Origin: Candidatus Thorarchaeota archaeon
Lineage (GTDB): Archaea; Asgardarchaeota; Thorarchaeia; Thorarchaeales; Thorarchaeaceae
Assembly (NCBI GenBank): GCA_004524445.1
Contig: SDNP01000004.1
Location: forward strand, 39,596 to 103,595
Length of the DNA stretch: 64,000 bases
Direction of reading: 5' to 3'
This document shows, piece by piece, positions 46,154 through 59,789 of this stretch; position 1 is the first letter of the stretch, and the number at the start of each line of letters is the position of its first letter. The notes under the pieces were generated by a model. It ran no database searches, was not told the DNA's origin, and saw only the letters and a program-made list of their open reading frames with translations. Made by a program: the position numbers and the translations under genes.

Positions 46154-47605
46154 TTATTCAGCAAGCCTGAGTGTCAGTACAAACTTGGCACCCATGCTGG
46201 GCTGTCCTGGCACACGGTCAAAGATTTCAAGTTTTCCGCCGTATTTTGTGGCCATTTGTGAAACCAAGGTCAGACCCACTCCACCAGCCCGCCTAGACTT
46301 ATCGAATAGGGCTTCTTTTCTACTGTCACTGATTCCAGGGCCATTATCAGCGATGGCTATTTCTACCATATCACCTAATCGCCTTATTTCCACCCAGATT
46401 TTTCGCTCATCTTTGGGATTGTGTCTTGCAGCATTCTCAAGAAGATTCCAGATAAGCTCACCTAGAAGAGCGTCCGCATGAACAATGATCTTATCCTGGA
46501 GCCCAACGACTTTGACCTGCGCACAATGTACGCGGCGGACAACCGACACTTTCTCCTCGACTACTTCTGTGAGATTGACTTTTGCTGTAGGCAAATGCCG
46601 GAGCTGTCCAGCACGTTTCACCTTAGTAATCAGTCGGTTACACCTCTCCACCGCATCCTGGATATCCATACGAGCATCATCAATGTAAGAATCAGGTAGT
46701 TCTTCGTCGAGAAGCCCTGAAGATGTCATAATCACCTGAAGTTGATTTGCTATATCATGAGTAAGCAAATCAAGATAAAATTGAATCGACTCCTCAGCTT
46801 CCTTCTGGGAGGATATATCAGTTACTACTGCAAAGGTGCCAAGAAACTCATTCTCGGGAGAGAAGTACGGCATAGCTGAAACGATTGTTGGAACCACTTT
46901 CCCAGACTTAGTTTCCCATTTCAATTCATAGTGATCAGAAATGCCAGCCTTACGTTCCTCACGTTTGCTCTCGACAAACTTGCTATCTTTTTCTTTAGTG
47001 AATTCAATCCAGCCGTGTCCAATAATCTCCTCAGGATCACGTTCAAGCATGTCACAAAAGGCGTTGTTTGCATAGACGATACGCCCCTTTTCATCATCAA
47101 TTGACAGCCCGTCATTCATTGTTTCAACGAGTGTGCGATATTTTTCTTCACTCTGCTCGAGAGCCTTCCTATCTGTAACCTGTTGTGTTATATCCAAAAT
47201 ATGTAAGACAGTCTTCTTCCCTTGGGAATCTGTTGGAGCAACTGATGCTATGAGGTCAAGAGTTGCTTTGTCCCCACCTAACCGGGTGACTTCTATGCGA
47301 TATGCACCGGGACCAATATCCCCTTTTTGACGTCTTGAAAACTTTTCCGAAACTCTTGAAGCCACATCACTTGCAAGAAACTCTCGAAAATCATGCCCAA
47401 TATATCCTTCAGCAGGTCTCCCGAGAACATTCAGTGCGACTTCATTGACATAATCTATCTTATAATCTTCATTTACAATCATGATTGCCTCGTGGCTATG
47501 TTTCATGAGATGTTCGAGTATGGGTTGTGTAATCCTCACTTTGCCTAACTGCATAGTTGTGTCACTTGAAGATGTGCCGTCCGTTTTCTGGTCTCTCGAA
47601 TTCAT
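46154..47605 (-). CDS. Cytoplasmic PAS-PAS sensor histidine kinase
   Basis: Two PAS/PAC repeats, H-box THDIANQL, NLLENAARH, DNGPGI, GGVGL. Confidence 0.93.
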   Translation of the reverse strand: MNSRDQKTDGTSSSDTTMQLGKVRITQPILEHLMKHSHEAIMIVNEDYKIDYVNEVALNVLGRPAEGYIGHDFREFLASDVASRVSEKFSRRQKGDIGPGAYRIEVTRLGGDKATLDLIASVAPTDSQGKKTVLHILDITQQVTDRKALEQSEEKYRTLVETMNDGLSIDDEKGRIVYANNAFCDMLERDPEEIIGHGWIEFTKEKDSKFVESKREERKAGISDHYELKWETKSGKVVPTIVSAMPYFSPENEFLGTFAVVTDISSQKEAEESIQFYLDLLTHDIANQLQVIMTSSGLLDEELPDSYIDDARMDIQDAVERCNRLITKVKRAGQLRHLPTAKVNLTEVVEEKVSVVRRVHCAQVKVVGLQDKIIVHADALLGELIWNLLENAARHNPKDERKIWVEIRRLGDMVEIAIADNGPGISDSRKEALFDKSRRAGGVGLTLVSQMATKYGGKLEIFDRVPGQPSMGAKFVLTLRLAE

Positions 47606-49209: not shown

Positions 49210-50298
49210 TCAATCGTAATCCAATGATAGCTCGGGAAATACGCAATCTTTGACTCTTTTTACGTTCTCTCTAGTAATGTCCCAAATTTCTTCATCATCA
49301 CGAAAAGGAGGTTCTTCATCAGGAATTTCCATGTGAAGTCCGGATAATAATGAAATAATTAGTTTGGCTCCTGTTTTGAAGACTTCAGGATTATATCCGC
49401 CACCAGAAACAACTCCCAAACAGCCATTGCAGTTCCGATGTGAGAATTCATGAAACCATTCTGCGACATAATGGATAGTCTTGAATGTGAGGTTCAGGTG
49501 AGCCAAAGGGTCTCGATAGTGTGCATCGAAACTGGGAAGAAGTAGTATGAAATCCGGCTTGAAGAAGTGGACTAGCGGCGGGACCAATTCATCAAAAGCG
49601 TAGCGGTACACATCGTCACCGGCATCCATTGGAAAATGCATATTGACGTTATAGCCTCTACCAGAATCTGACCCGATATCCTCAACAAAACCATCATGAG
49701 GGTACATCCACTCGGGATCTTCGTGAAATGAAATGGTCATGACTGCAGAATCATTGTAGAAATAATCTTGAGTTCCATTTCCGTGATGCACATCGAAATC
49801 TGCAATTAAAACCCGTTCGTAGCCTAGTTCCTTTAAAAGAATGACTGCCATGGCGATGTCATTGAAGATACAGAAGCCGCCTCCATGGTCGTAAAAAGCA
49901 TGATGAAAGCCTCCGGTAGGCGAATAGAAGTGATCAATTCGGCGATTGTGCATAGCTCGAATTCCCGAGATAATAGTTCCAGAGGCTAGGAGGGAATTTT
50001 CGAGGATGCCAACAAATCCAGGTGTGTCAATGTCTATATCCCCTTTGCCAGTCGTCGAGATCTCCGTGACTTTCTGAATGTAGTCTTTAGAATGTGCCTT
50101 TCTCAGCAGTTCATCCGATACAGGTTCAGGGTTAATGATCTCGATAGGGGAGGTATCAAGAATGCCAGATTCAAGCAAGAAGTCGTGTACCATCTGGAAA
50201 CGTCCCACTCGTACTGGATGACGGGCTCCAAAATCGAACGTTTCGAGTTTTGGGTCCCACATGAATCCAACTGAGCAATGGGAGGGATCATCATTCAT
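49210..50298 (-). CDS. Histone deacetylase/AcuC family amidohydrolase
   Basis: GGFHHA, GFCIFND, DFDVHHGNGT, DAHYRDPL, GGGY. Confidence 0.95.
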   Translation of the reverse strand: MNDDPSHCSVGFMWDPKLETFDFGARHPVRVGRFQMVHDFLLESGILDTSPIEIINPEPVSDELLRKAHSKDYIQKVTEISTTGKGDIDIDTPGFVGILENSLLASGTIISGIRAMHNRRIDHFYSPTGGFHHAFYDHGGGFCIFNDIAMAVILLKELGYERVLIADFDVHHGNGTQDYFYNDSAVMTISFHEDPEWMYPHDGFVEDIGSDSGRGYNVNMHFPMDAGDDVYRYAFDELVPPLVHFFKPDFILLLPSFDAHYRDPLAHLNLTFKTIHYVAEWFHEFSHRNCNGCLGVVSGGGYNPEVFKTGAKLIISLLSGLHMEIPDEEPPFRDDEEIWDITRENVKRVKDCVFPELSLDYD

Positions 50299-50362: not shown

Positions 50363-51808
50363 TTGAGGCTTCGAGAGATAGCGAAGGTGCCGATTTCTTC
50401 TGATGCTTACAGCCTCTATGTAAGGCAAAGGACTCAGGCAAATCCCCAGGTCTTTTCACTGGACTATGGAGATCAATTGAAGGTGTATGATACTTCAGGG
50501 TCCCTACAATCATCGAGAAACTGGAGCAGCAAGGTTCGATGTATTGCAGTGGGAGATGTTGAGGGGGAGGGACATGATGCGCTTGTGGGAGGGGTAGGAA
50601 AGCGAATATTAGTTATAGACCATCAAGGTAGTCTATTGTGGAAGATTGACCTTGAGAGTAACGTCATTGCCTGTGACGCAAGAGATGTTGATGGCGATGA
50701 TGCAGCAGAGGTTGCAGTTGCTCTTCGGAACAAACGTGTCATACTCTGGAATGATGACAAGGTCGCCCTTTTCACTCGTAAAATGGATTTTCCTATAGCT
50801 GATGTTTGGCTTGAGGACATGACGGATGATTCCGAACTCGAGCTAATTGTTGCAGACAGGCGGGGAAATGTTGTCATTCTTACATCAACAGGCTATGAAT
50901 TGATGAGGCTTGAACTCGGAGAGGCAATCACGGTCTTTGCGGTCATCAGGTTTGGGAAGAAAAAGCTGTTTGTAACGGGAAATCACTCAAAGCTTCTGAA
51001 GATTTGGGATATCAAAGGAAGAAGAATCAATGAATTGAAACTAAGTGGTGAGCCTTCAGCCATATCGGCAGGAGTTCCAGCTGAAAAAACCGACCTAGCG
51101 TATATTGTTGTCAGCACAGAGGATAACCGGCTTGGTTTCTGGGAAATCCGTGATAAGACAAGAGTTTCCGATTCAGAGAAGACAACCCTCCAAGAGATTG
51201 AAGCAACCAAGACGATTCTATACCGAAGAGCCATAAGATGTGGAAATTGCGGAGCTCCAACCTCTCCCGAGTCGTCCCGATGCGAATCATGTGGTGCAAT
51301 ACTCGAGGTTCTTGACGAATATGCACTTCAGGAGTACATAAGTGAGGCATTGGATTCCATTACCTCGAAGCATGAGAAGATTAAGCTCAAAGAACTAGAC
51401 AGGATACTTAGACGAACTCTGCCGAAACCAGCATCATATAACCTTAGGCGAAGTCTTCAGACAATGATTGAAAAGCGAATCGTAGAAGGTCATATCGATG
51501 GCAATGTTTTCGTGCGGACGCGCCCCTGGAAGATTAAGAGCTCAAACAGACCGAGGAGAGATGAGATTCGAAGACTCCCAGAAGTCATTTTCTCATTGCT
51601 CAAGAAGGAGAAGAGTTTCGAGATCCAACTTGTCGAGAAGAAGACAGGCATTGACAGATCTGTCTTGAGAAAATCACTTCTAATCCTTCTAGGCGATGAG
51701 GAAATAGAAGGCAGAATGAGTGACAATGAATTTATTCTTGAAGAAAGTCAAGAGATAGAAAGCTTTGTCAGCAAGTTACTAGAAGAGATTGAATCTATTT
51801 CAAAATAA
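50363..51808 (+). CDS. FG-GAP-like beta-propeller + zinc ribbon + two PCI-like winged-helix domains
   Basis: DVEGEG, DVDGDD, DMTDDS blades and LKIWD; CGNCGAP...CESCG; IVEGHID and IEGRMS wHTH ends. Confidence 0.72.
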   Translation: MRLREIAKVPISSDAYSLYVRQRTQANPQVFSLDYGDQLKVYDTSGSLQSSRNWSSKVRCIAVGDVEGEGHDALVGGVGKRILVIDHQGSLLWKIDLESNVIACDARDVDGDDAAEVAVALRNKRVILWNDDKVALFTRKMDFPIADVWLEDMTDDSELELIVADRRGNVVILTSTGYELMRLELGEAITVFAVIRFGKKKLFVTGNHSKLLKIWDIKGRRINELKLSGEPSAISAGVPAEKTDLAYIVVSTEDNRLGFWEIRDKTRVSDSEKTTLQEIEATKTILYRRAIRCGNCGAPTSPESSRCESCGAILEVLDEYALQEYISEALDSITSKHEKIKLKELDRILRRTLPKPASYNLRRSLQTMIEKRIVEGHIDGNVFVRTRPWKIKSSNRPRRDEIRRLPEVIFSLLKKEKSFEIQLVEKKTGIDRSVLRKSLLILLGDEEIEGRMSDNEFILEESQEIESFVSKLLEEIESISK

Positions 51809-51849
51809 TAATGAAGAATCGTGGTAAGCCCATTGGAGGAATATAGAAG

Positions 51850-54696
51850 ATGAAAATTAGTAAGCGTATAATAATCGCATTCGTGACTGTGTCATTAATT
51901 CCGATTTTGGTGATGTCAGCATTATCAGCGGTCACGATATACAATGTTTCGACTGAGAATGCAAATGATGCGGCAGCAGCTTTAGAGAATGAAGAAACCG
52001 AGAATCTAAGGCGTCTTGCCGGTGATACAGCCCTGTTTATTGACGAACGCATGCAGCACTATTTGGATGGTGTCTATATGATGGAAGAGTATTCTGAGGC
52101 CCTCTTCAACAAGGAAATCAATGCAACTCCGACATATTCGTATTATTGGGACCCAGACATTGAGGAGGCAAGGGGCCATCCTATTCCGGGAATAGACCCG
52201 GATTATGAGGAGGATTACGACTCGTATGATATCTCCTTTGACGTGAGCTGCTATTACATGCCCAGACCATATTACCCAACTCCTGGAGACCCATTCACAC
52301 TTGACGAAGATACTGAATATTATCTGAATGTTTCAAGCAATATGGATAATATCTATCGAGCGCTACATGAAATGAGTCCCGATTATATCTGGCTCTACAT
52401 GTATTTTGACCAGGCCGTTGCCCCTGGCCATCTCTTCAGAAACTATCCATATGATAATCTGGAGTATTTCCTTGGCGATGTGCCCGCTGAAGATTATGAC
52501 CCACAAGTTGAAGAATGGTACACAAACGCTGCATCAGTGGGAGTTAATGATGACAGTGTGGCTATCACAAGCCCCTATGGGGACCCATCCACAGGGCTCG
52601 TCATATCGATGGGACGGCCTGTCTATGTGAATGAGACCGATTACATCGGAGTGGTATCAGCGGATGTCACACTAGATACGGTTCTTGCCAATGTGCTGAA
52701 TATTAGAGTCCTCGATAGCGGATATGCGTACCTTTTGGAATCGGATGGTGCTGTGCTTGCTCATCCCGAATTCACCACGGAAGGTCAAACTATCTATGAT
52801 CTAGAATTCGAAGACAGTACAAGTAGTGAGGCGCAAGCGTTTAGTGATATCCTGACAGATGCCCTTGCCAGTGAGTCAGGTCAAGACACATTCACGAAGG
52901 ATGGAGAGGAGTGGCTTATCACTTACAAGGAAGTTCCTAACACAGATTTTCTCCTCGCGGTTGTAGTTCCGGTATCAGAAGCCATTCAGCCCGCAGCCAA
53001 TATCCTCTCGCAAGTATTGGCTAATACGACCTTCTTGACCATCGTCCTAGGCGGTATTCTCGCAGGTGTAGCAGTGCTAGTTGGCGCAGTTGCTTACCGT
53101 AGAGGCAAAGCGGTTGTTGAACCTATCAAGGAAATGACTCGACTTGTGGAAAAGATGTCCAAGCAGGACTTCACGCGAAGCGTGTCCACGAGTGGAGCTA
53201 TGTATGAAGAGATAGGTACAACGGTTGACGCCCTACTTAGTTTCCAGGAGGCTTGTAGGTTTGGTAACCAGGCATTCATCAGGGGGGACCTGAACCGTGC
53301 AATGTCCAACTATCAGAACCTCCTTGAGATTAGCAGACGTCTGAATATCAAAGCCGGCGAGCAAACAATGCTCCTAAACATTGGCAATGTCTTTCGACAA
53401 CGGGGAGACACGGGTAACGCACTCGATTATTATGAGAGAGCCCTTGCATTAGCTAAAGAGCTTCTCTTCCAAGCAAAAGAGGGTGATGCCGATGAAACAG
53501 ATGCCATGGTACGAGTTGCGTCTGCTTATCACAACATGGCACTAGTAAGGATGGACAGGCAAGAATATGATGAAGCAATCACGTTGCTTGAAGACGCAAG
53601 AGCGATTGATGAAACTCTTGGCAACCAAAGAGGACTGGCAAAACGAGCAGATGCCATGGGTCTTGTACTTATGAGAGAAGGCAGAGAAAGCCAAGCAGAA
53701 TCCAAGTTCAAAGAAGCGCAGACTGTTGCTGAGAAGGAAGGGTATGACCGGACTCTAGCCTACATCCACTATCATCTTGGTGAATTGTTCGCACAGAGAG
53801 AAAATTGGAATTCGGCAAAATCTGAGTATCAAACCGCCATTAATCTTGGTGAACATACAGAGGAATACTGGCTGGTTGTATATGCAATGCAAGAATTGGC
53901 CGATACGCTTGACCATCTTGATGAACCCACACATGACCTCCGTCGAAGAGCAGAGAAGCTGAGAAGGTCAATACTATTCAAGAAAAGCGTCATCTTTGTA
54001 ATTGACTACTCAGGTAGTATGAGGGCTCAAGATAGAATAAGAGCTGCAGTTGACGGTGCAAAGGAGATTTTGAACAGCCAAGTGAATCCCCAAGACCGTG
54101 TAAGTATTATTGTGTTCAACAATACGTACAGGCAAATTCTACCTCTGACGAGAAGGGGGGAACATGACGACCCGAGAGATAGCAAAATAGTAAGAGCGCT
54201 TGAATCACTCAGACATCCTAATTATGCCACAGCATTTTACGATGCTCTAGGCAAGGCATTGGAGGATCTCGACAAGATAGAGTCCAGTGAGCATCGATGG
54301 ATTATAGCACTTACTGATGGGCAGGATAACAGTTCAGAGAAGTACTCGTTGGATGCCTTAGAGGGAATAGATACAGAGGAGGAGCGGTACAAGGAGGGTA
54401 GACCTCTGACTATTGAGGGCTACATCCGTGACAATCATCTTGATGTCTTCTTGATCATCATTGGAGTTGGTGAGGAGCTTAGAGAGCCTATAGAAGCAAA
54501 TATCCGATCTCCAGATACGGGAAGACGGATGACATTCGAAGAGCTTCTCGAATCGGTTTGTGAGTCTATCCCGCAGGGCCAGTACTTCTCCGTGGTTGAT
54601 ACAAAGGATGTACATCTGGACATTCAACAGGCATTTCAGGAGGTAGGCGTAATGATGGCGCAGCTGGAAATGGGAGGAATGACGGACGACTACTAG
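51850..54696 (+). CDS. Membrane receptor TM-dCache-TM-HAMP-TPR-vWA
   Basis: dCache (EWY, PYGDP, GVVSADV, GYAYLL), HAMP (EPIKEM...EEIG), TPR repeats, vWA with MIDAS DYSGSM / T / LTDG. Confidence 0.85.
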   Translation: MKISKRIIIAFVTVSLIPILVMSALSAVTIYNVSTENANDAAAALENEETENLRRLAGDTALFIDERMQHYLDGVYMMEEYSEALFNKEINATPTYSYYWDPDIEEARGHPIPGIDPDYEEDYDSYDISFDVSCYYMPRPYYPTPGDPFTLDEDTEYYLNVSSNMDNIYRALHEMSPDYIWLYMYFDQAVAPGHLFRNYPYDNLEYFLGDVPAEDYDPQVEEWYTNAASVGVNDDSVAITSPYGDPSTGLVISMGRPVYVNETDYIGVVSADVTLDTVLANVLNIRVLDSGYAYLLESDGAVLAHPEFTTEGQTIYDLEFEDSTSSEAQAFSDILTDALASESGQDTFTKDGEEWLITYKEVPNTDFLLAVVVPVSEAIQPAANILSQVLANTTFLTIVLGGILAGVAVLVGAVAYRRGKAVVEPIKEMTRLVEKMSKQDFTRSVSTSGAMYEEIGTTVDALLSFQEACRFGNQAFIRGDLNRAMSNYQNLLEISRRLNIKAGEQTMLLNIGNVFRQRGDTGNALDYYERALALAKELLFQAKEGDADETDAMVRVASAYHNMALVRMDRQEYDEAITLLEDARAIDETLGNQRGLAKRADAMGLVLMREGRESQAESKFKEAQTVAEKEGYDRTLAYIHYHLGELFAQRENWNSAKSEYQTAINLGEHTEEYWLVVYAMQELADTLDHLDEPTHDLRRRAEKLRRSILFKKSVIFVIDYSGSMRAQDRIRAAVDGAKEILNSQVNPQDRVSIIVFNNTYRQILPLTRRGEHDDPRDSKIVRALESLRHPNYATAFYDALGKALEDLDKIESSEHRWIIALTDGQDNSSEKYSLDALEGIDTEEERYKEGRPLTIEGYIRDNHLDVFLIIIGVGEELREPIEANIRSPDTGRRMTFEELLESVCESIPQGQYFSVVDTKDVHLDIQQAFQEVGVMMAQLEMGGMTDDY

Positions 54697-54710
54697 GAGG
54701 TGCAAGAAGA

Positions 54711-56162
54711 ATGGCGACAACTAAGAAAAAAGGCAGCTTTCGACGAAATGTAATAGTGACCTTCCTCACAATCGCAGTGATATCCATGACCGTAACTGGT
54801 CTGATCTCACTTGCATTCGTGGACTTGACGGGAGGGTACACAACAGACCAAAGCTCGAATGCACTCCAAGAACAAATTGAGAGAAATATGGGGCAGACAG
54901 CCGAGTCCAACTCACTAGTGGTTAGGCAAAAGCTAGAGAGTGCTGAGGGCATGGTCAACGCCATGGCAGAAGAGGTTGAAGCTTTGTTCGATAGTGATTC
55001 AACATATTTCCCTAGAGAGGTCTACTACGACTACTTCTTCCAGAACACGGCAGAAGGCCCATATCCTGCTGATGTCCATTATGAAGAGGAGTATGGTATC
55101 AATGTTTCATGGAACTACAGTAGTTGGTATATTCCAGGCTCTAACTCCACCAACTACGAAGCTTACGAGGCTGTTGAGTCGGCGAAGCTAGAAAGGGTTT
55201 CCAATATGGACTACATATTCCAATACATTCACTCTCAGATGCCAGAGTTCAGATGGCTCTATGTAGGTTTTGAGAACGACTTATGGATTAATTACCCGGG
55301 AAGCATTGTGGGAGGTAGTACCTCTGAACGTAATAATCCCGCGCTGCAGTTCAAGGCATCAGAGGAGGGATGGTATCAAGAGCTCAGAGCTGCGGGTCGC
55401 GATACAATATTCGTAGAGCCATACTATGACCCGATAGATGGAGTTCTACTCATATCCATCGGAAGGGCGTTCTATAATGAGAGCGGTCAGGTAATGGGCA
55501 TTATTGCAGGGGATATCACAGTAGATGACATAAGGAACAAGATTCTTGATGTGGAGATTCTGGAAACAGGGTACGCTGCACTCATAACTTCAGGAGGAGG
55601 AATCGTTGCACATCCGAACGTGGAAGACAGGCACTATGGGCTATACGACGACCAGCTCCCACCACTGGAAGATTTCGAGGTCAATTCTGATTTGTCACCT
55701 GCGCAGATCGCACAGATAACCTCAGGAAACACTGGCACGACGACATTCCAAAAGGATGGGGAAGAGTATATCCTTGCCTACACACCAGTTGGCGTTGGAG
55801 GCTACATCTGCATTATCATCGTTCCAAGGGAGGAGGCTCTTGCAGCAATCCCTGCACTTGAGGCCAGAATACAAAATGCAGACCTTCAAGCGACGACGTT
55901 CATCATTGCAGTTACCGTTGGTGGTATATTGGTTGCAGGGGCTGTCGCAGTAGTCGTATCCAATCAAATAACTCGCCCTCTACAATATTTGATGGACTTG
56001 GCAAACAGGAATGTATCTGCCATGATAAAGCAAGAAAGGCTAGATACTACTGACCTCCAAGTTGATAGGGTCTATACTGGAAAGGATGATGAGATTGGTG
56101 AATTAGCACGGGCATTCCAAGGGATGCTCGACACCATTCGAGAAGAGGAGAGCGAGGAATAG
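54711..56162 (+). CDS. Membrane receptor TM-dCache-TM-HAMP without output domain
   Basis: Paralogous dCache (GWY, PYYDP, GIIAGDI, GYAAL); ends right after HAMP (ITRPL...DEIGELARAF). Confidence 0.87.
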   Translation: MATTKKKGSFRRNVIVTFLTIAVISMTVTGLISLAFVDLTGGYTTDQSSNALQEQIERNMGQTAESNSLVVRQKLESAEGMVNAMAEEVEALFDSDSTYFPREVYYDYFFQNTAEGPYPADVHYEEEYGINVSWNYSSWYIPGSNSTNYEAYEAVESAKLERVSNMDYIFQYIHSQMPEFRWLYVGFENDLWINYPGSIVGGSTSERNNPALQFKASEEGWYQELRAAGRDTIFVEPYYDPIDGVLLISIGRAFYNESGQVMGIIAGDITVDDIRNKILDVEILETGYAALITSGGGIVAHPNVEDRHYGLYDDQLPPLEDFEVNSDLSPAQIAQITSGNTGTTTFQKDGEEYILAYTPVGVGGYICIIIVPREEALAAIPALEARIQNADLQATTFIIAVTVGGILVAGAVAVVVSNQITRPLQYLMDLANRNVSAMIKQERLDTTDLQVDRVYTGKDDEIGELARAFQGMLDTIREEESEE

Positions 56163-56182
56163 ACCAATTTCAGAAACGCGAG

Positions 56183-58021
56183 ATGCAGAATATGCAGAAT
56201 TGGACCACAGATGATGCCAAAGTAGTGTACGGTCTGAATAAGAATGACCTACATTTCCTCAACATAACAGAAGAGGGGAATCTTTGCATTGAACTTAATG
56301 GAAAAAGAATCACAATAGAAGATTTGGTGAACCGTGTTCACCACGAGGACGGAATGAAGAAGGGATACACCTCATCCTTCACGCTTCGGATGCCCCAATT
56401 GATCACATACCAAATCCTGAAGTTGAAGAGGAGTTTCCAGAAACTTATTGACGATTTGGATTATGAGGGGGATTTTTGTGGGATATACCCTGTGAAGGTC
56501 AACCAACGAAAAGACTGCGTAGTGCCAGTCATTATGTCAGATCCCAATTACGGAATAGAAGCGGGTACAAAGGCAGAATTACATCTCATTCGAGAGGTCG
56601 TTGGTGAAGAAAAACATCGGCTCATCATTTGTAATGGTGCAAAGGACCCCGAGTATCTCTCAACAATCGAGGAGTTCACTAGAGATGGCTACAACATAGG
56701 AATCAGCATCGAATCGGTAGATGAGGCAAACCGGGTCTTGGATATATTCGAGCCTAATGAGATTAATTTGGTGTTGCGCCTTAAACCGTATCTGACAGTA
56801 CGCGGGCACTGGTCACATTCTGCTGGAAGGGACTCCAAGTTTGGACTCAGCATTCACGACCTATTCGATGTTGTTGATCTCCTGAAAAGCAACGGCTTTG
56901 AAAATTCGGTGACGACAATTCTTGGGCATGTGGGTTCTCAAATCACAGCAATTGAGGATTTCAGGAAATTCTCGCGCTTCATGACCCGTACATTCTACGA
57001 AATTCGGGATATGGGGTTTGGGAACCTAGACATCATTGATTTTGGTGGAGGATTGCCCATTGATTATACAAGCAGTCATCCACCGAACATGATGGAGCTC
57101 TATGCAACAGCCATCATCGAGGGAATCATGGATGAAATGAATAATCAGATCGGCGAAAGAAAAGCTCCAGATATTATGATAGAGTCTGGACGAGGGATAA
57201 CTGCCTTGAGCTCACTTGTACTCGTTGAGGCACTCGAAGTGCGATGTGTATATCCGTCGGTTGATGATTTGCCTCAGCTTAGAAAACACCTTGAAGCATG
57301 GATATCGAAGTTGACTGCCGCTACCTCATTGAAAGAGATATTAGATATTTGGGAGGAATTCCTTTCTGAATCGATGCCAGAGGCCCGTTCTCTATCTGAG
57401 CTGAAGGAACAAGAGAAATTGCGTGGGGCATTCCGTTCTGAGATTCGGAGACATATTGCAGACTTGGGTGTTGATTCAGTCATTGCAAACCCGGTGGTTG
57501 AGGAGCTTTGGCATCCTGAGCATATTGTTGTAGGGAATTTCAGTGTCTTCAACAGCGCGGGAGACCATGTGCTTGTGAAGCAGCATTTCCCCATCCTGCC
57601 TGTGAGAGACCTCCATGTAATGCCAGAAACAACAGTGCGTCTCGTGGATATTACCTGCGATTCCGATGGCGAAATCTCCCAATTTCACAGAAAGGGCACA
57701 GGAGAGATATGGTATACCCAAGATTATAGGCCACTCACAATGCCGGTTGAACGAATGGGTGTTGGAATTCCTGTTGGAAAACTAGGGAATGTGAAAGGCT
57801 CTCACTTTGTTATCGCTCTGACAGGCGCGTACCAAGATGTGATTGAGATGGACCATAATCTCCTGGGAGACCTCCCTGACGTTGAGCTTCTTCTTGATAA
57901 GGATGGAAAATGGGAAACACGCTGGATGGCTGGAGCCCAAAACATGGAGGAAATCCTTGAAGACGTGGGATATTTTGGTCTTGATATAGATGAGGATCCC
58001 TACATGTCTGGTGACGACTGA
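56183..58021 (+). CDS. speA: Biosynthetic PLP-dependent arginine decarboxylase (bacterial/plant type)
   Basis: YPVKVNQ, EAGTKAEL, CNGAKD, SKFGL, HVGSQI, GGGL, ESGR, DITCDSDG, GAYQ. Confidence 0.92.
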   Translation: MQNMQNWTTDDAKVVYGLNKNDLHFLNITEEGNLCIELNGKRITIEDLVNRVHHEDGMKKGYTSSFTLRMPQLITYQILKLKRSFQKLIDDLDYEGDFCGIYPVKVNQRKDCVVPVIMSDPNYGIEAGTKAELHLIREVVGEEKHRLIICNGAKDPEYLSTIEEFTRDGYNIGISIESVDEANRVLDIFEPNEINLVLRLKPYLTVRGHWSHSAGRDSKFGLSIHDLFDVVDLLKSNGFENSVTTILGHVGSQITAIEDFRKFSRFMTRTFYEIRDMGFGNLDIIDFGGGLPIDYTSSHPPNMMELYATAIIEGIMDEMNNQIGERKAPDIMIESGRGITALSSLVLVEALEVRCVYPSVDDLPQLRKHLEAWISKLTAATSLKEILDIWEEFLSESMPEARSLSELKEQEKLRGAFRSEIRRHIADLGVDSVIANPVVEELWHPEHIVVGNFSVFNSAGDHVLVKQHFPILPVRDLHVMPETTVRLVDITCDSDGEISQFHRKGTGEIWYTQDYRPLTMPVERMGVGIPVGKLGNVKGSHFVIALTGAYQDVIEMDHNLLGDLPDVELLLDKDGKWETRWMAGAQNMEEILEDVGYFGLDIDEDPYMSGDD

Positions 58022-58833
58022 TGGCGGTAGATGAGTCCAAGTTTGAAATCGTACGTGACTTGCTTACCGGTCATTGCGTACTAGTAGCGTTCAGTGGGGG
58101 TGTGGATAGTTCAGTATTAGCACATAATGCAAAGAGATGGGCAAAAGAAGTCAGCCTCCTCCTAGTTAGTAGTGAAACCGTCACAAGTGAAGAGATTGAG
58201 AACGCCAAGTCCGTTGCAAGTGAGCTGGAATTAGACCTCGATGTTATTGATTTTGACTGGTTGAGTCAAGGCAATCTCGCAAGCAATCCAATCGACCGTT
58301 GTTATCAATGCAAAAAGGCACTCGCGAAACTGTGGAAAGAACGTGCAAATGAGCTTGGACTCGATATGGTTGTGGAGGGAACAACGGCGACAGAGATGTC
58401 TGGAAGAAGGCCAGGAGAACAGGCTCTTAGAGAGGAGGGCATCACATCACCATTTCTTGTAGCTGAGCTAACAAAACCCGATCTTCGAGCATATGCTCTA
58501 GAACATAATCTATCCATAGCTGAACGGCCTTCAATGGCTTGCTTGGCTACACGGTTTCCTTATGACACACAAATTACTAAGAACCTGCTCCGAAAAATAG
58601 ACGAGTTTGAGGAGAAGATTCGGGAATTCACCGGCGTAGGTAGGTTACGAGCTCGATATCATGATGAAATTGTCAGAATTGAGGTTGCGCCTGAAGAACG
58701 TGATGCATTCTTTGACAAGAGGATTCTCGATGACATCCATCAAATAGGGAAATCTCTTGGCTTTCAGTATATCACACTTGATATGAAGGGATACAGATCA
58801 GGGGCCATGGACGAGCCCTTATGTGATGATTAG
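58021..58833 (+). CDS. larE: LarE-family ATP-dependent sulfur transferase
   Basis: AFSGGVDS PP-loop, RCYQCK, RPG, ACLATRFPY, GYRSGAM; ATG overlaps the speA stop. Confidence 0.9.
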   Translation: MAVDESKFEIVRDLLTGHCVLVAFSGGVDSSVLAHNAKRWAKEVSLLLVSSETVTSEEIENAKSVASELELDLDVIDFDWLSQGNLASNPIDRCYQCKKALAKLWKERANELGLDMVVEGTTATEMSGRRPGEQALREEGITSPFLVAELTKPDLRAYALEHNLSIAERPSMACLATRFPYDTQITKNLLRKIDEFEEKIREFTGVGRLRARYHDEIVRIEVAPEERDAFFDKRILDDIHQIGKSLGFQYITLDMKGYRSGAMDEPLCDD

Positions 58834-59327: not shown

Positions 59328-59789
59328 TCATAAATGCTTGATCCAAATCACTGCATGATCGTCAGGATAGAATCCTGCAATTTCCGCACCTTCACTGAAA
59401 CCAATGCCTTTGTAGAAGTTTCGTGCTGTTTCATTTGTTCGTTCCATAAAAAGAAAAATCACACGCAAAGCATGCCCATGTTCAGAGAAGTATTCAATCG
59501 CTTGATTCGTCAATATTTCGACTAGTTTCGTCGCGATTCCTTGTCGCCTGTATTCTTCGCTCACGCCAAGTGACACTATCTCAGCAATTCCATCCTCAAG
59601 ACCGCCCCTTGTTTCCCATGATACAGTCCCGCATATTTGCTCACCATCTGTGGATAAAATAGTGCGAGTGTGTTCTATCAGATCGTCTGCAAACCGAGCT
59701 GCTCGTTCAACATTATCTTCTATTTCTTCTAGATACATTTTGATGAGCAACGGTTTGTCATCAATCAACGCGGTTCTGTATTCTATCAT
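59328..59789 (-). CDS. GNAT family N-acetyltransferase
   Basis: LGVSEEYRRQGIA, NETARNFYKGIGF. Confidence 0.92.
   Translation of the reverse strand: MIEYRTALIDDKPLLIKMYLEEIEDNVERAARFADDLIEHTRTILSTDGEQICGTVSWETRGGLEDGIAEIVSLGVSEEYRRQGIATKLVEILTNQAIEYFSEHGHALRVIFLFMERTNETARNFYKGIGFSEGAEIAGFYPDDHAVIWIKHL

Follow-up and report, generated by a model that had tools for sequence, protein, structure and literature searches.

A 64,000-nucleotide stretch of Thorarchaeota DNA (hereafter the window) carries, directly upstream of a gene for an arginine decarboxylase (SpeA), two genes for predicted membrane receptors that we call BIG and SMALL. What do these receptors sense, and does their ligand bear any relation to the product of the enzyme encoded next to them? 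To our knowledge, the ligands of very few archaeal receptors have been identified, and Asgard signalling has hardly been studied by experiment. Moreover, we found no paper on the gene module described below.

A receptor pair within a tight gene cluster

The two receptor genes and speA lie on the plus strand and are separated by gaps of only 14 nt (positions 54697-54710) and 20 nt (56163-56182), an arrangement noted in the initial annotation and confirmed from the open reading frame coordinates. BIG (948 aa, 51850..54696, plus strand) comprises a transmembrane segment (TM1, residues 7-31), a dCache_1 domain, a second transmembrane segment (TM2, residues 393-416), a HAMP-like segment, TPR repeats and a VWA domain with a metal-ion-dependent adhesion site (MIDAS). 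Its dCache_1 domain (PF02743) scores 72.7 bits against a Pfam gathering threshold of 45, and its further Pfam matches are TPR_12 and VWA_2. The product of this gene had been described as a TM-dCache-TM-HAMP protein. The membrane segments and sensor domain stand, but the plain HAMP ending does not, because the HAMP match (PF00672) reaches only 15.1 bits against a gathering threshold of 25 and is followed by the TPR repeats and the VWA domain. The MIDAS is intact, with D719, S721, S723 and D823 invariant among 49 BIG orthologues.

SMALL (483 aa, 54711..56162, plus strand) is a paralogue of BIG (29% identity over about 420 residues, E 2e-40) with a similar front end, consisting of TM1 (residues 14-37), a dCache_1 domain (73.9 bits against the same threshold of 45) and TM2 (residues 395-416), where the transmembrane segments of both sensors were taken directly from the sequence. 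A HAMP domain follows TM2 (27.0 bits against the threshold of 25), after which the protein ends without an output domain.

Immediately upstream of BIG is a gene for a propeller/zinc-ribbon protein (481 aa, 50363..51808, plus strand), recognized by Pfam beta-propeller and Zn-ribbon matches, which opens the tight cluster. In a synteny sample of 201 Asgard genomes, whose families are labelled here f1, f5, f9, f12, f14, f22 and f27, this gene is found immediately 5′ of BIG in all f1 loci, and it also adjoins the receptor pair in f9 and f22. The earlier description of the locus was incomplete in that it left out both this co-conserved gene and the TPR-VWA tail of BIG. At the other end of the cluster, the speA stop codon overlaps by 1 nt the start of a gene for a LarE-family PP-loop sulfur transferase (270 aa, 58021..58833, plus strand; TIGR00268, 235 bits against a cut-off of 150). 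This larE gene is a variable passenger, following SpeA in 26 of 53 SpeA-containing f1 loci and in none outside f1.

Spacing along propeller, BIG, SMALL, speA and larE is 41, 14, 20 and -1 nt. BIG (GGAGG, 8 nt ahead of the start) and SMALL (GGAGGTG) each have a Shine-Dalgarno sequence, and a TATA-like box is present only ahead of the propeller gene. These features are signs of an operon comprising the propeller gene, BIG, SMALL and speA. Domain annotation of the locus revealed no transporter or exporter genes in or beside it.

An acidic residue in place of the carboxylate-binding arginine

Amino-acid sensors of the dCache_1AA class (PctA/B/C, Mlp24/Mlp37 and Tlp3; Gumerov et al. 2022, PMC8915833) bind the ligand carboxylate through R126 and the amino group through Y144 and D173. 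The Asgard receptors have the same fold. Specifically, a Foldseek search with an AlphaFold2 model of SMALL (mean pLDDT 87.7) returned top matches that are all dCache domains, with target TM-scores of up to 0.79, and the closest structures are amino-acid binders, some of them solved with arginine. They also have the same motif register, aromatic-x4-[R]-x-W-Y...Y...D, with five of the six positions retained.

In BIG, the motif reads Y216-DPQV-E221-E-W223-Y224 (52495..52521, plus strand), and the predicted amino-group contacts follow as P242-Y243-G-D245 and D272 (52570..52671, plus strand). Alignment to Mlp24 (6IOP), at an E value of 8e-15 that is among the best for BIG, sets DYDPQVEEWY against DYDPRKRPWY with no gaps in the motif. 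The equivalent regions of SMALL are F214-KASE-E219-G-W221-Y222 (55350..55376, plus strand), where alignment to 3C8C sets EEGWY against VRPWY, and P237-Y238-Y-D240, D243 and D268 (55416..55520, plus strand). The motifs quoted in the initial annotation, YDPQVEEWY and FKASEEGWY, are therefore present in the translations. Its central claim, that Glu replaces the Arg of the amino-acid motif in both paralogues, is upheld by motif-gapless alignments to Mlp24/Mlp37 and by conservation. Indeed, the Arg that defines dCache_1AA was never seen at the R126-equivalent position in 72 SMALL and 49 BIG orthologues. Position 221 of BIG is E in 42 of 49 and Q in the other 7, whereas position 219 of SMALL is E in 48, D in 21, N in 2 and Q in 1 (acidic in 69 of 72), and an acid at this position also holds in other Asgard families.

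The remaining positions of the amino-acid motif (Y121, W128, Y129, Y144 and D173) correspond to Y216, W223, Y224, Y243 and D272 in BIG and to F214, W221, Y222, Y238 and D268 in SMALL. Y216, W223 and Y224 are invariant in the BIG orthologues, the W-Y pair of SMALL is likewise fully or almost fully conserved, and position 214 of SMALL is aromatic (Y, W or F) throughout. The amine contacts had also been said to be retained, and both the Tyr of the PY dipeptide and the final Asp are indeed conserved: BIG keeps Y243 in 45 of 49 orthologues and D245 and D272 in 49 of 49, and the 72 SMALL orthologues all have P237, Y238, D240 and D268, with D or E at position 243.

These patterns suggest that both pockets derive from the amino-acid-sensor type, with the carboxylate-binding Arg exchanged for Glu or Asp, with the Tyr and Asp residues that would contact a protonated amino group retained, and with other acidic positions conserved as well. 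A pocket of this kind would be expected to exclude ligands with an alpha-carboxylate and to prefer cations without one. The obvious candidates would be agmatine, putrescine or another polyamine, and agmatine is only one candidate among cations of this kind.

Several features count against an amine ligand. An acidic pocket could equally accept a divalent metal or the side chain of a basic amino acid, the best structural matches bind amino acids, and 32 of the 72 SMALL orthologues have Arg at position 4 of the motif, from where this residue could reach the pocket. The pair might sense some other cation that bears on SpeA (the substrate arginine or another basic amino acid held by the side chain, a divalent metal, or pH) and so tune arginine decarboxylation. 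The conserved acids E/D219, D240, D/E243 and D268 would suit a guanidinium group or a metal, the position-4 Arg could still hold a carboxylate, and the nearest structures do bind amino acids. However, the alpha-carboxylate in the solved complexes is held by the very Arg that is absent here (PMC8915833), Glu in its place should repel that group, and both proteins of this locus lack the position-4 Arg, with Ser present in SMALL. We consider sensing of such a cation improbable.

Conversion of an amino-acid sensor into an amine sensor by loss of the carboxylate-binding Arg is the route by which dCache_1AM domains arose (PctD, PacA, McpX and the M. mazei kinase 3LIB; Cerna-Vargas et al. 2023, PMC10589655), and the Asgard pair would follow the same evolutionary logic. 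3LIB and 3LI8 are the top sequence matches of SMALL and of the SMALL family profile. Judged by the 3LIB alignment and orthologue counts, the aromatic pair of the AM motif (PctD F188/Y189) is W-Y in the Asgard sensors, the hydrophobic-x-Ser element (M215/S217) is L-I-S or V-I-S and the final Asp (D235) is D268/D272. In contrast, 3LIB carries Ser at the Arg position, where the Asgard sensors carry an acid, and, by a 3LIB alignment that is gapped in this stretch, the place of the cation-pi aromatic (PctD Y206) may be taken in SMALL by an invariant Asp (D240) two residues after the PY tyrosine. Y239 of SMALL (Y or F in 65 of 72 orthologues) might instead play the part of this aromatic. The AM motif further includes W155 and a helical insertion (R103-D133 pair above the pocket), and within archaea it has been found in only one phylum, Halobacteriota (PMC10589655).

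A further chemical parallel may be offered by TlpQ and McpU, Pseudomonas receptors for polyamines, agmatine and histamine. Their dCache domains have a strongly negative pocket in which Y208/D210/D239 and E170 contact agmatine and polyamines; KD values for agmatine are 0.15-0.48 uM, and putrescine, cadaverine and spermidine are also bound (PMC6234866). In this type of pocket the Tyr-x-Asp and the distal Asp hold the primary amine, and the additional acid serves the second nitrogen. SMALL shows the same sequence pattern of Tyr-x-Asp, distal Asp and extra Glu (Y238-x-D240...D268 plus E219), although the Asgard family profile matches neither McpU (6F9G) nor TlpQ (6FU4) even at E 10, and thus the positions cannot be aligned. 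TlpQ and McpU are MCP chemoreceptors for foraging with no speA link reported in PMC6234866, whereas the Asgard pair adjoins speA.

SpeA and its linkage to the receptors

The adjoining enzyme is a SpeA-type PLP-dependent arginine decarboxylase (612 aa, 56183..58021, plus strand; NF003763 at 2e-100). It matches SpeA of E. coli (3NZQ) and C. jejuni (3NZP) collinearly over the full length, with the same domain order and catalytic motifs (YPVKVNQ, EAGTKAEL, HVGSQ, GGGL, ESGR and CDSDG are all present). The original speA call is thus sound with respect to the intact catalytic motifs, but the protein misses the NCBIfam equivalog cut-offs (NF003763, 337 against 369; TIGR01273, 308 against 624). In deposited Thorarchaeota genomes, Asgard SpeA is often annotated as 'hypothetical'.

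The usual archaeal arginine decarboxylase is the pyruvoyl enzyme PdaD. This genome (90% complete) carries speA as its only PF02784 gene, and no PdaD, AdoMetDC fold, OKR_DC_1 or second PF02784 gene was found in it; PdaD was likewise found in none of the 43 f1 genomes examined. SpeA is therefore the predicted stand-in for PdaD in these Asgard families. The genome also encodes TiaS and deoxyhypusine synthase, and because these enzymes need agmatine or polyamine, SpeA is expected to serve a housekeeping role rather than to act as a dedicated signal synthase.

SpeA is directly downstream of SMALL in 34 of the 201 genomes (29 f1, 3 f14 and 2 f27), a count of which much reflects vertical inheritance inside one family. 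It also lies next to BIG in divergent orientation in f22 and f5, and one f12 genome has it 6 kb from the pair. The linkage thus extends to several Asgard families and has survived rearrangement, so the concern raised in the initial annotation, that it might exist in this genome only, falls away. In the SpeA tree, unlinked enzymes nest among linked ones, which indicates that the linkage is ancestral. Conversely, f9 has the receptor pair without SpeA and away from PdaD, so SpeA is not a requirement for the pair. Five f1 genomes retain SpeA and lack orthologues of the propeller gene, BIG and SMALL; in one of these, from the same genus, a clean 5.23-kb deletion (window 50566-55796) has removed the propeller gene, BIG and most of SMALL.

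This pattern of loss bears on the earlier proposal of an autoinducer-like system, in which the product of SpeA would be a secreted agmatine or polyamine signal and the pair a dedicated cell-density receptor. Synthase and receptors do share one conserved operon, and the pocket suits a decarboxylated amine. However, SpeA is the sole recognizable arginine or ornithine decarboxylase here, with PdaD in none of the 43 f1 genomes, and so is not a dedicated synthase. Moreover, the demand from TiaS and deoxyhypusine synthase gives it a housekeeping function, the operon and its surroundings encode no transporter, and the receptors are repeatedly lost while SpeA stays. The proposal is weak, and we regard it as very unlikely.

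It is also conceivable, albeit unlikely, that there is no signalling relation at all, and that the module senses something unrelated while speA shares its neighbourhood and promoter by inheritance. Gene order in f1 is generally well kept, with HDAC-family and M24 peptidase genes equally constant as neighbours, and the f9 pair without SpeA and the several genomes with SpeA but no pair fit this reading. Against it, receptors and speA have stayed adjacent in five or six families, despite an inversion (the divergent f22 and f5 arrangements), while all other neighbours change; outside f1, for example, the HDAC-family, M24 peptidase and larE genes do not travel with the pair. In addition, a separate archaeal promoter would hardly fit into the spacing of 14-50 nt, and the pocket chemistry fits the product class of SpeA. 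A conserved Asgard operon of propeller, BIG, SMALL and speA is the best explanation.

A possible circuit for external amines

The anatomy, motif substitution, conservation, synteny and co-loss of the module suggest that its sensors may tie outside amines to polyamine metabolism. We hold it to be an even call whether the pair is an optional sensor that uses no kinase, detects a cationic ligand without a carboxylate and is coupled to agmatine/polyamine metabolism. In such a system, BIG and SMALL, two extracytoplasmic dCache_1 paralogues, probably combine into a single hetero-oligomeric receptor. Unlike dCache_1AA sensors, they form a fixed gene pair, and where those sensors feed an MCP, kinase or cyclase, the Asgard proteins end in TPR-VWA or in nothing. 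The HAMP segments would relay the signal to the TPR repeats and MIDAS-bearing VWA domain of BIG, a non-enzymatic output that may work through protein docking. Docking would most likely involve the propeller protein, which is conserved together with the receptors and is probably their partner in the cytoplasm. Predicted co-transcription with SpeA, the lineage's only recognizable arginine decarboxylase, leads us to read the module as an optional accessory circuit that would match agmatine or polyamine production, or the response to it, to outside amines.

A fuller version of this model is a long shot: a kinase-free, heteromeric Asgard dCache receptor for agmatine or polyamine from the same cell or from its neighbours, controlling polyamine synthesis or a community response through a docking-only relay from HAMP to TPR to VWA-MIDAS to the propeller/zinc-ribbon protein. 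The pairing of dCache and VWA domains may also have a connection to the alpha2delta/CACHD1 architecture of eukaryotes.

The locus offers a specific ligand hypothesis, a cationic amine without a carboxylate, together with named candidate pocket residues and, in SpeA, a genomic partner that points to physiology; the genomes lacking the propeller gene, BIG and SMALL are natural knock-outs for comparison. If amine binding holds true, the pair would represent a second route from amino-acid to amine sensing, by exchange of Arg for Glu or Asp, beside the dCache_1AM route. It would also constitute the first proposed regulatory input to polyamine synthesis among the archaea related to eukaryotes, with an output that lacks enzyme domains.

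A probable operon of two dCache proteins and a SpeA-like decarboxylase

Two paralogous dCache_1 receptor proteins, here called BIG (51850–54696, + strand, 948 aa) and SMALL (54711–56162, + strand, 483 aa), are encoded between the gene for a β-propeller/zinc-ribbon protein (50363–51808, + strand, 481 aa; the propeller gene) and that for a SpeA-like protein (56183–58021, + strand, 612 aa). A gene for a LarE-family sulfur transferase (58021–58833, + strand, 270 aa) follows, its start sharing 1 nt with the stop codon of speA. The gaps between the first four genes are 41, 14 and 20 nt, ribosome-binding sites of the GGAGG type precede BIG and SMALL, and the sole TATA-like element, CTTATAT, falls within the 64 nt that separate the propeller gene from a divergent HDAC-family gene (49210–50298, − strand; PF00850, 8e-73). 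Taken together, the gene spacing, ribosome-binding sites and single TATA-like element make it likely that one predicted transcript runs from the propeller gene to speA/larE. The operon locus contains no exporter or transporter gene. LarE follows SpeA in 26 of the 53 loci that show SpeA in f1, the Thorarchaeota family to which the window belongs, and in no other family among the loci compared.

Throughout f1, the operon is flanked by the divergent HDAC-family gene, and a small GNAT acetyltransferase gene (59328–59789, − strand) lies 0.5 kb beyond larE. Both families include enzymes that acetylate or deacetylate polyamines. An NCBIfam search of these two genes gave no polyamine-specific assignment, and a reading of the neighbourhood as a cluster for acetylating and deacetylating polyamines was rejected for this reason. 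A histidine-kinase-like gene with a PAS-PAS-HATPase_c architecture (46154–47605, − strand), 3 kb upstream of the operon, is kept in several f1 loci.

The initial annotation described the pair as two TM–dCache–TM–HAMP proteins. This description suits SMALL, which carries a dCache_1 domain (73.9 bits) and a HAMP domain (27.0 bits) and ends about 10 residues past the latter, but is incomplete for BIG, in which a dCache_1 domain (72.7 bits, cut-off 45) is joined to TPR repeats and a VWA domain. Hydrophobic segments of BIG span residues 7–31 and 393–416, and its HAMP-like stretch scores 15.1 bits, which is under threshold. The TPR–VWA tail rules out a plain HAMP-only pair. The MIDAS site of BIG is intact (D719-x-S721-x-S723 ... 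D823) and invariant across 49 orthologues.

BIG and SMALL are paralogues in their sensor parts, which share 29% identity (E 2e-40). SMALL was modelled with AlphaFold2 from 72 orthologues (mean pLDDT 87.7), and Foldseek matches the model to the solved dCache domains of Mlp24, PctA, CtaA, Tlp3, PscC, an M. mazei kinase, PacA and α2δ, with target TM-scores of up to 0.79. The receptor family profile also matches the dCache domains of human CACHD1 (PDB 8S7C; 6e-8) and of calcium-channel α2δ. Like BIG, these proteins combine dCache and VWA, although their VWA domain is inserted in the Cache domain, whereas that of BIG is C-terminal and cytoplasmic.

Pocket residues and the predicted ligand class

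Amino-acid sensors of the dCache_1AA class carry the motif Y121-x4-R126-x-W128-Y129 ... Y144 ... D173, wherein R126 and W128 contact the ligand carboxylate and Y144 and D173 contact the amino group; affinity falls 61-fold in R126A and binding is lost in D173A (PMC8915833). The alignment of BIG with Mlp24 (6IOP), at E 8e-15, leaves the motif ungapped (Mlp24/BIG: DYDPRKRPWY/DYDPQVEEWY, PYVD/PYGD and YDV/ADV), and the corresponding segments of 3C8C and SMALL are VRPWY/EEGWY, PYAD/PYYD and YDV/GDI. By these alignments, E221 of BIG and E219 of SMALL fall exactly at the Arg position, which bears out the Arg-to-Glu exchange that had been proposed for both pockets.

This position is rarely neutral in SMALL orthologues (n = 72, 52–94% identity; E in 48, D in 21, N in 2 and Q in 1) and is E in 42 and Q in 7 of the BIG orthologues (n = 49). 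The acid is kept in other Asgard families as well, and the residue that follows is frequently acidic in SMALL orthologues and acidic in 40/49 of those of BIG. The accompanying claim, that both proteins retain the amine contacts, also holds, with Y238-x-D240/D268 (SMALL) and Y243-x-D245/D272 (BIG) strongly conserved. Specifically, P237, Y238, D240 and D268 of SMALL are invariant and its residue 243 is always D or E; D245 and D272 of BIG are invariant, and Y243 is present in 45/49. Motif position 1 is Y, W or F in 72/72 SMALL orthologues and Y216 in 49/49 of BIG. The W–Y pair is invariant in BIG (W223 and Y224) and nearly so in SMALL (W221 in 65/72, the remainder F; Y222 in 71/72). One reservation concerns position 4, which is Arg in 32/72 SMALL orthologues, Ser in the window protein and Gln in BIG; the AlphaFold2 model of SMALL places this stretch in a loop preceding a helix, where the side chain may face either into the pocket or away from it. 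Across the Asgard families, the SMALL pocket is complete in every one, but that of BIG has degenerated in f14 and f9.

With Arg exchanged for Glu or Asp, the pocket loses its carboxylate anchor, gains negative charge and retains its amine anchors; it is thus predicted to bind a cation that lacks a carboxylate. Arginine, another basic amino acid, a metal or pH might be sensed instead; we regard these alternatives as quite improbable.

Amine sensors of the dCache_1AM class are derived from amino-acid sensors by loss of the R126-type Arg, and a survey found the AM motif in a single archaeal phylum, Halobacteriota (PMC10589655). TlpQ and McpU bind agmatine with KD values of 0.15 and 0.48 µM, as well as putrescine, cadaverine and spermidine, in a strongly negative pocket comprising Y208/D210/D239 and E170 (PMC6234866). 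BIG and SMALL likewise have Tyr-x-Asp ... Asp and an additional acid, a likeness of sequence pattern; McpU (6F9G) and TlpQ (6FU4) are unmatched by the receptor family profile even at E 10, and both are absent among the Foldseek matches listed for the SMALL model (rank 50 and above). By sequence, the profile matches the M. mazei domains 3LIB/3LI8 best (2.5e-14). Although 3LIB belongs to the AM-motif sensors, it has Ser at the Arg position, where BIG and SMALL have Glu, and an aromatic residue where they have an invariant Asp. Membership of dCache_1AA was rejected because the Arg is absent, and the sensor domains are filed as dCache_1 of amino-acid-type descent that depart from the AA motif in its defining Arg, rather than under dCache_1AM or the TlpQ/McpU type.

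Linkage of SpeA to the receptor pair across Asgard archaea

The BIG–SMALL pair occurs in 51 of 201 Asgard genomes, in constant order and with a few nucleotides between the genes. SpeA is encoded directly 3′ of the pair, in the same orientation, in 29 f1, 3 f14 and 2 f27 genomes, and adjoins BIG divergently in families f22 (2 genomes) and f5 (1 genome). It is 6 kb upstream of the pair in one f12 genome and on a separate contig in another. Three genomes (f9 and f24) have the pair without SpeA, and in 7 pair-bearing genomes the SpeA position is cut off by contig ends or genome incompleteness. The linkage is therefore not private to the window genome, since SpeA adjoins the pair in f1, f14, f27, f22 and f5. 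A further set of Thorarchaeota-type loci has SpeA next wherever a locus reaches past SMALL.

Within f1, HDAC-family and M24 peptidase genes are as constant beside the pair as SpeA, so the linkage there is in part plain inherited synteny. The same constancy would suit receptors for an unrelated ligand whose association with SpeA is merely inherited, a reading we consider unlikely, because outside f1 only BIG, SMALL and SpeA remain together (joined by a propeller gene in f9 and f22). This persistence is a stronger argument for a functional tie than the f1 synteny. Furthermore, unlinked SpeA copies are nested in clades of linked ones in the SpeA tree, which indicates that the linkage is old and separation derived.

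Several loci depart from the common arrangement. In f9, a propeller protein, not SpeA, follows the pair (L019, 10838–12706; L020, 4268–5854), and that of L020 matches BBS2_Mid at 33.4 bits (Pfam cut-off 27). In f27, a second PLP decarboxylase of 480 aa (Orn_Arg_deC_N and Orn_DAP_Arg_deC) lies close behind the receptor-linked SpeA (L013, 12585–14027, adjoining SpeA; L014, 5748–7193) and may catalyse a further polyamine-pathway step. One f5 genome carries two near-identical tandem SpeA copies and no receptor pair (L025, 7640–9322 and 10642–12324).

Agmatine supply and natural losses of the receptor genes

SpeA is a full-length match to the biosynthetic arginine decarboxylase model NF003763 (2e-100), under the equivalog cut-offs, and keeps the motifs of 3NZP and 3NZQ (PLP-lysine YPVKVNQ, EAGTKAEL, HVGSQ, GGGL, ESGR and CDSDG). 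The best 120 sequences in a homologue search are solely of Thorarchaeota type. The window genome (90% complete) shows no pyruvoyl PdaD, AdoMetDC-fold protein, OKR_DC_1 match above cut-off or second PF02784 gene. It also encodes an arginase-family gene, deoxyhypusine synthase and TiaS, which modifies tRNA-Ile with agmatine. PdaD and SpeA show largely complementary distributions across the 201 Asgard genomes (PdaD 0/43 and SpeA 38/43 in f1; PdaD 34/40 and SpeA 0/40 in f9). The lack of another recognisable decarboxylase in the genome, the presence of TiaS and this complementarity point to SpeA as the housekeeping agmatine source of the lineage.

Locus L021, from the same genus as the window genome, contains one clean junction equivalent to a 5.23-kb deletion of window positions 50566–55796. 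The deletion runs from about residue 68 of the propeller protein to about residue 363 of SMALL, removing all of BIG and the SMALL sensor. Out-of-frame remnants persist between the HDAC-family gene and SpeA, and HDAC, SpeA (76% identical) and LarE are still in place. Altogether, orthologues of the propeller gene, BIG and SMALL are all missing from five f1 genomes of four genera (88–98% complete, that of L021 included), which keep SpeA. By this joint loss with SpeA retained, the three genes behave as one dispensable unit, and SpeA is independent of them. In one block-losing f1 genome, SpeA (L026, 8171–9898) directly adjoins the HDAC-family gene and is an outlier in its divergence (34% identity; a branch of 2.6–2.8 in the tree versus a median of 0.48).

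The initial annotation had suggested an autoinducer-like system of synthase plus receptor, for which the adjacency of the genes might speak. True autoinducer signalling is very unlikely, given that the receptor genes are lost while SpeA stays. The loss pattern agrees with an accessory module for regulation or sensing and poorly with a dedicated synthase–receptor pair.

No published description of a propeller–BIG–SMALL–SpeA module was found in searches of the literature on Asgard/Thorarchaeota Cache receptors, arginine decarboxylase and agmatine. We propose, with confidence that is evenly balanced, that BIG and SMALL assemble into a hetero-oligomeric receptor whose dCache domains sense a cationic amine. 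Its output would be non-enzymatic, passing from HAMP through TPR to the VWA-MIDAS domain, which probably docks the propeller protein. Such a receptor would couple amines outside the cell to agmatine/polyamine metabolism.
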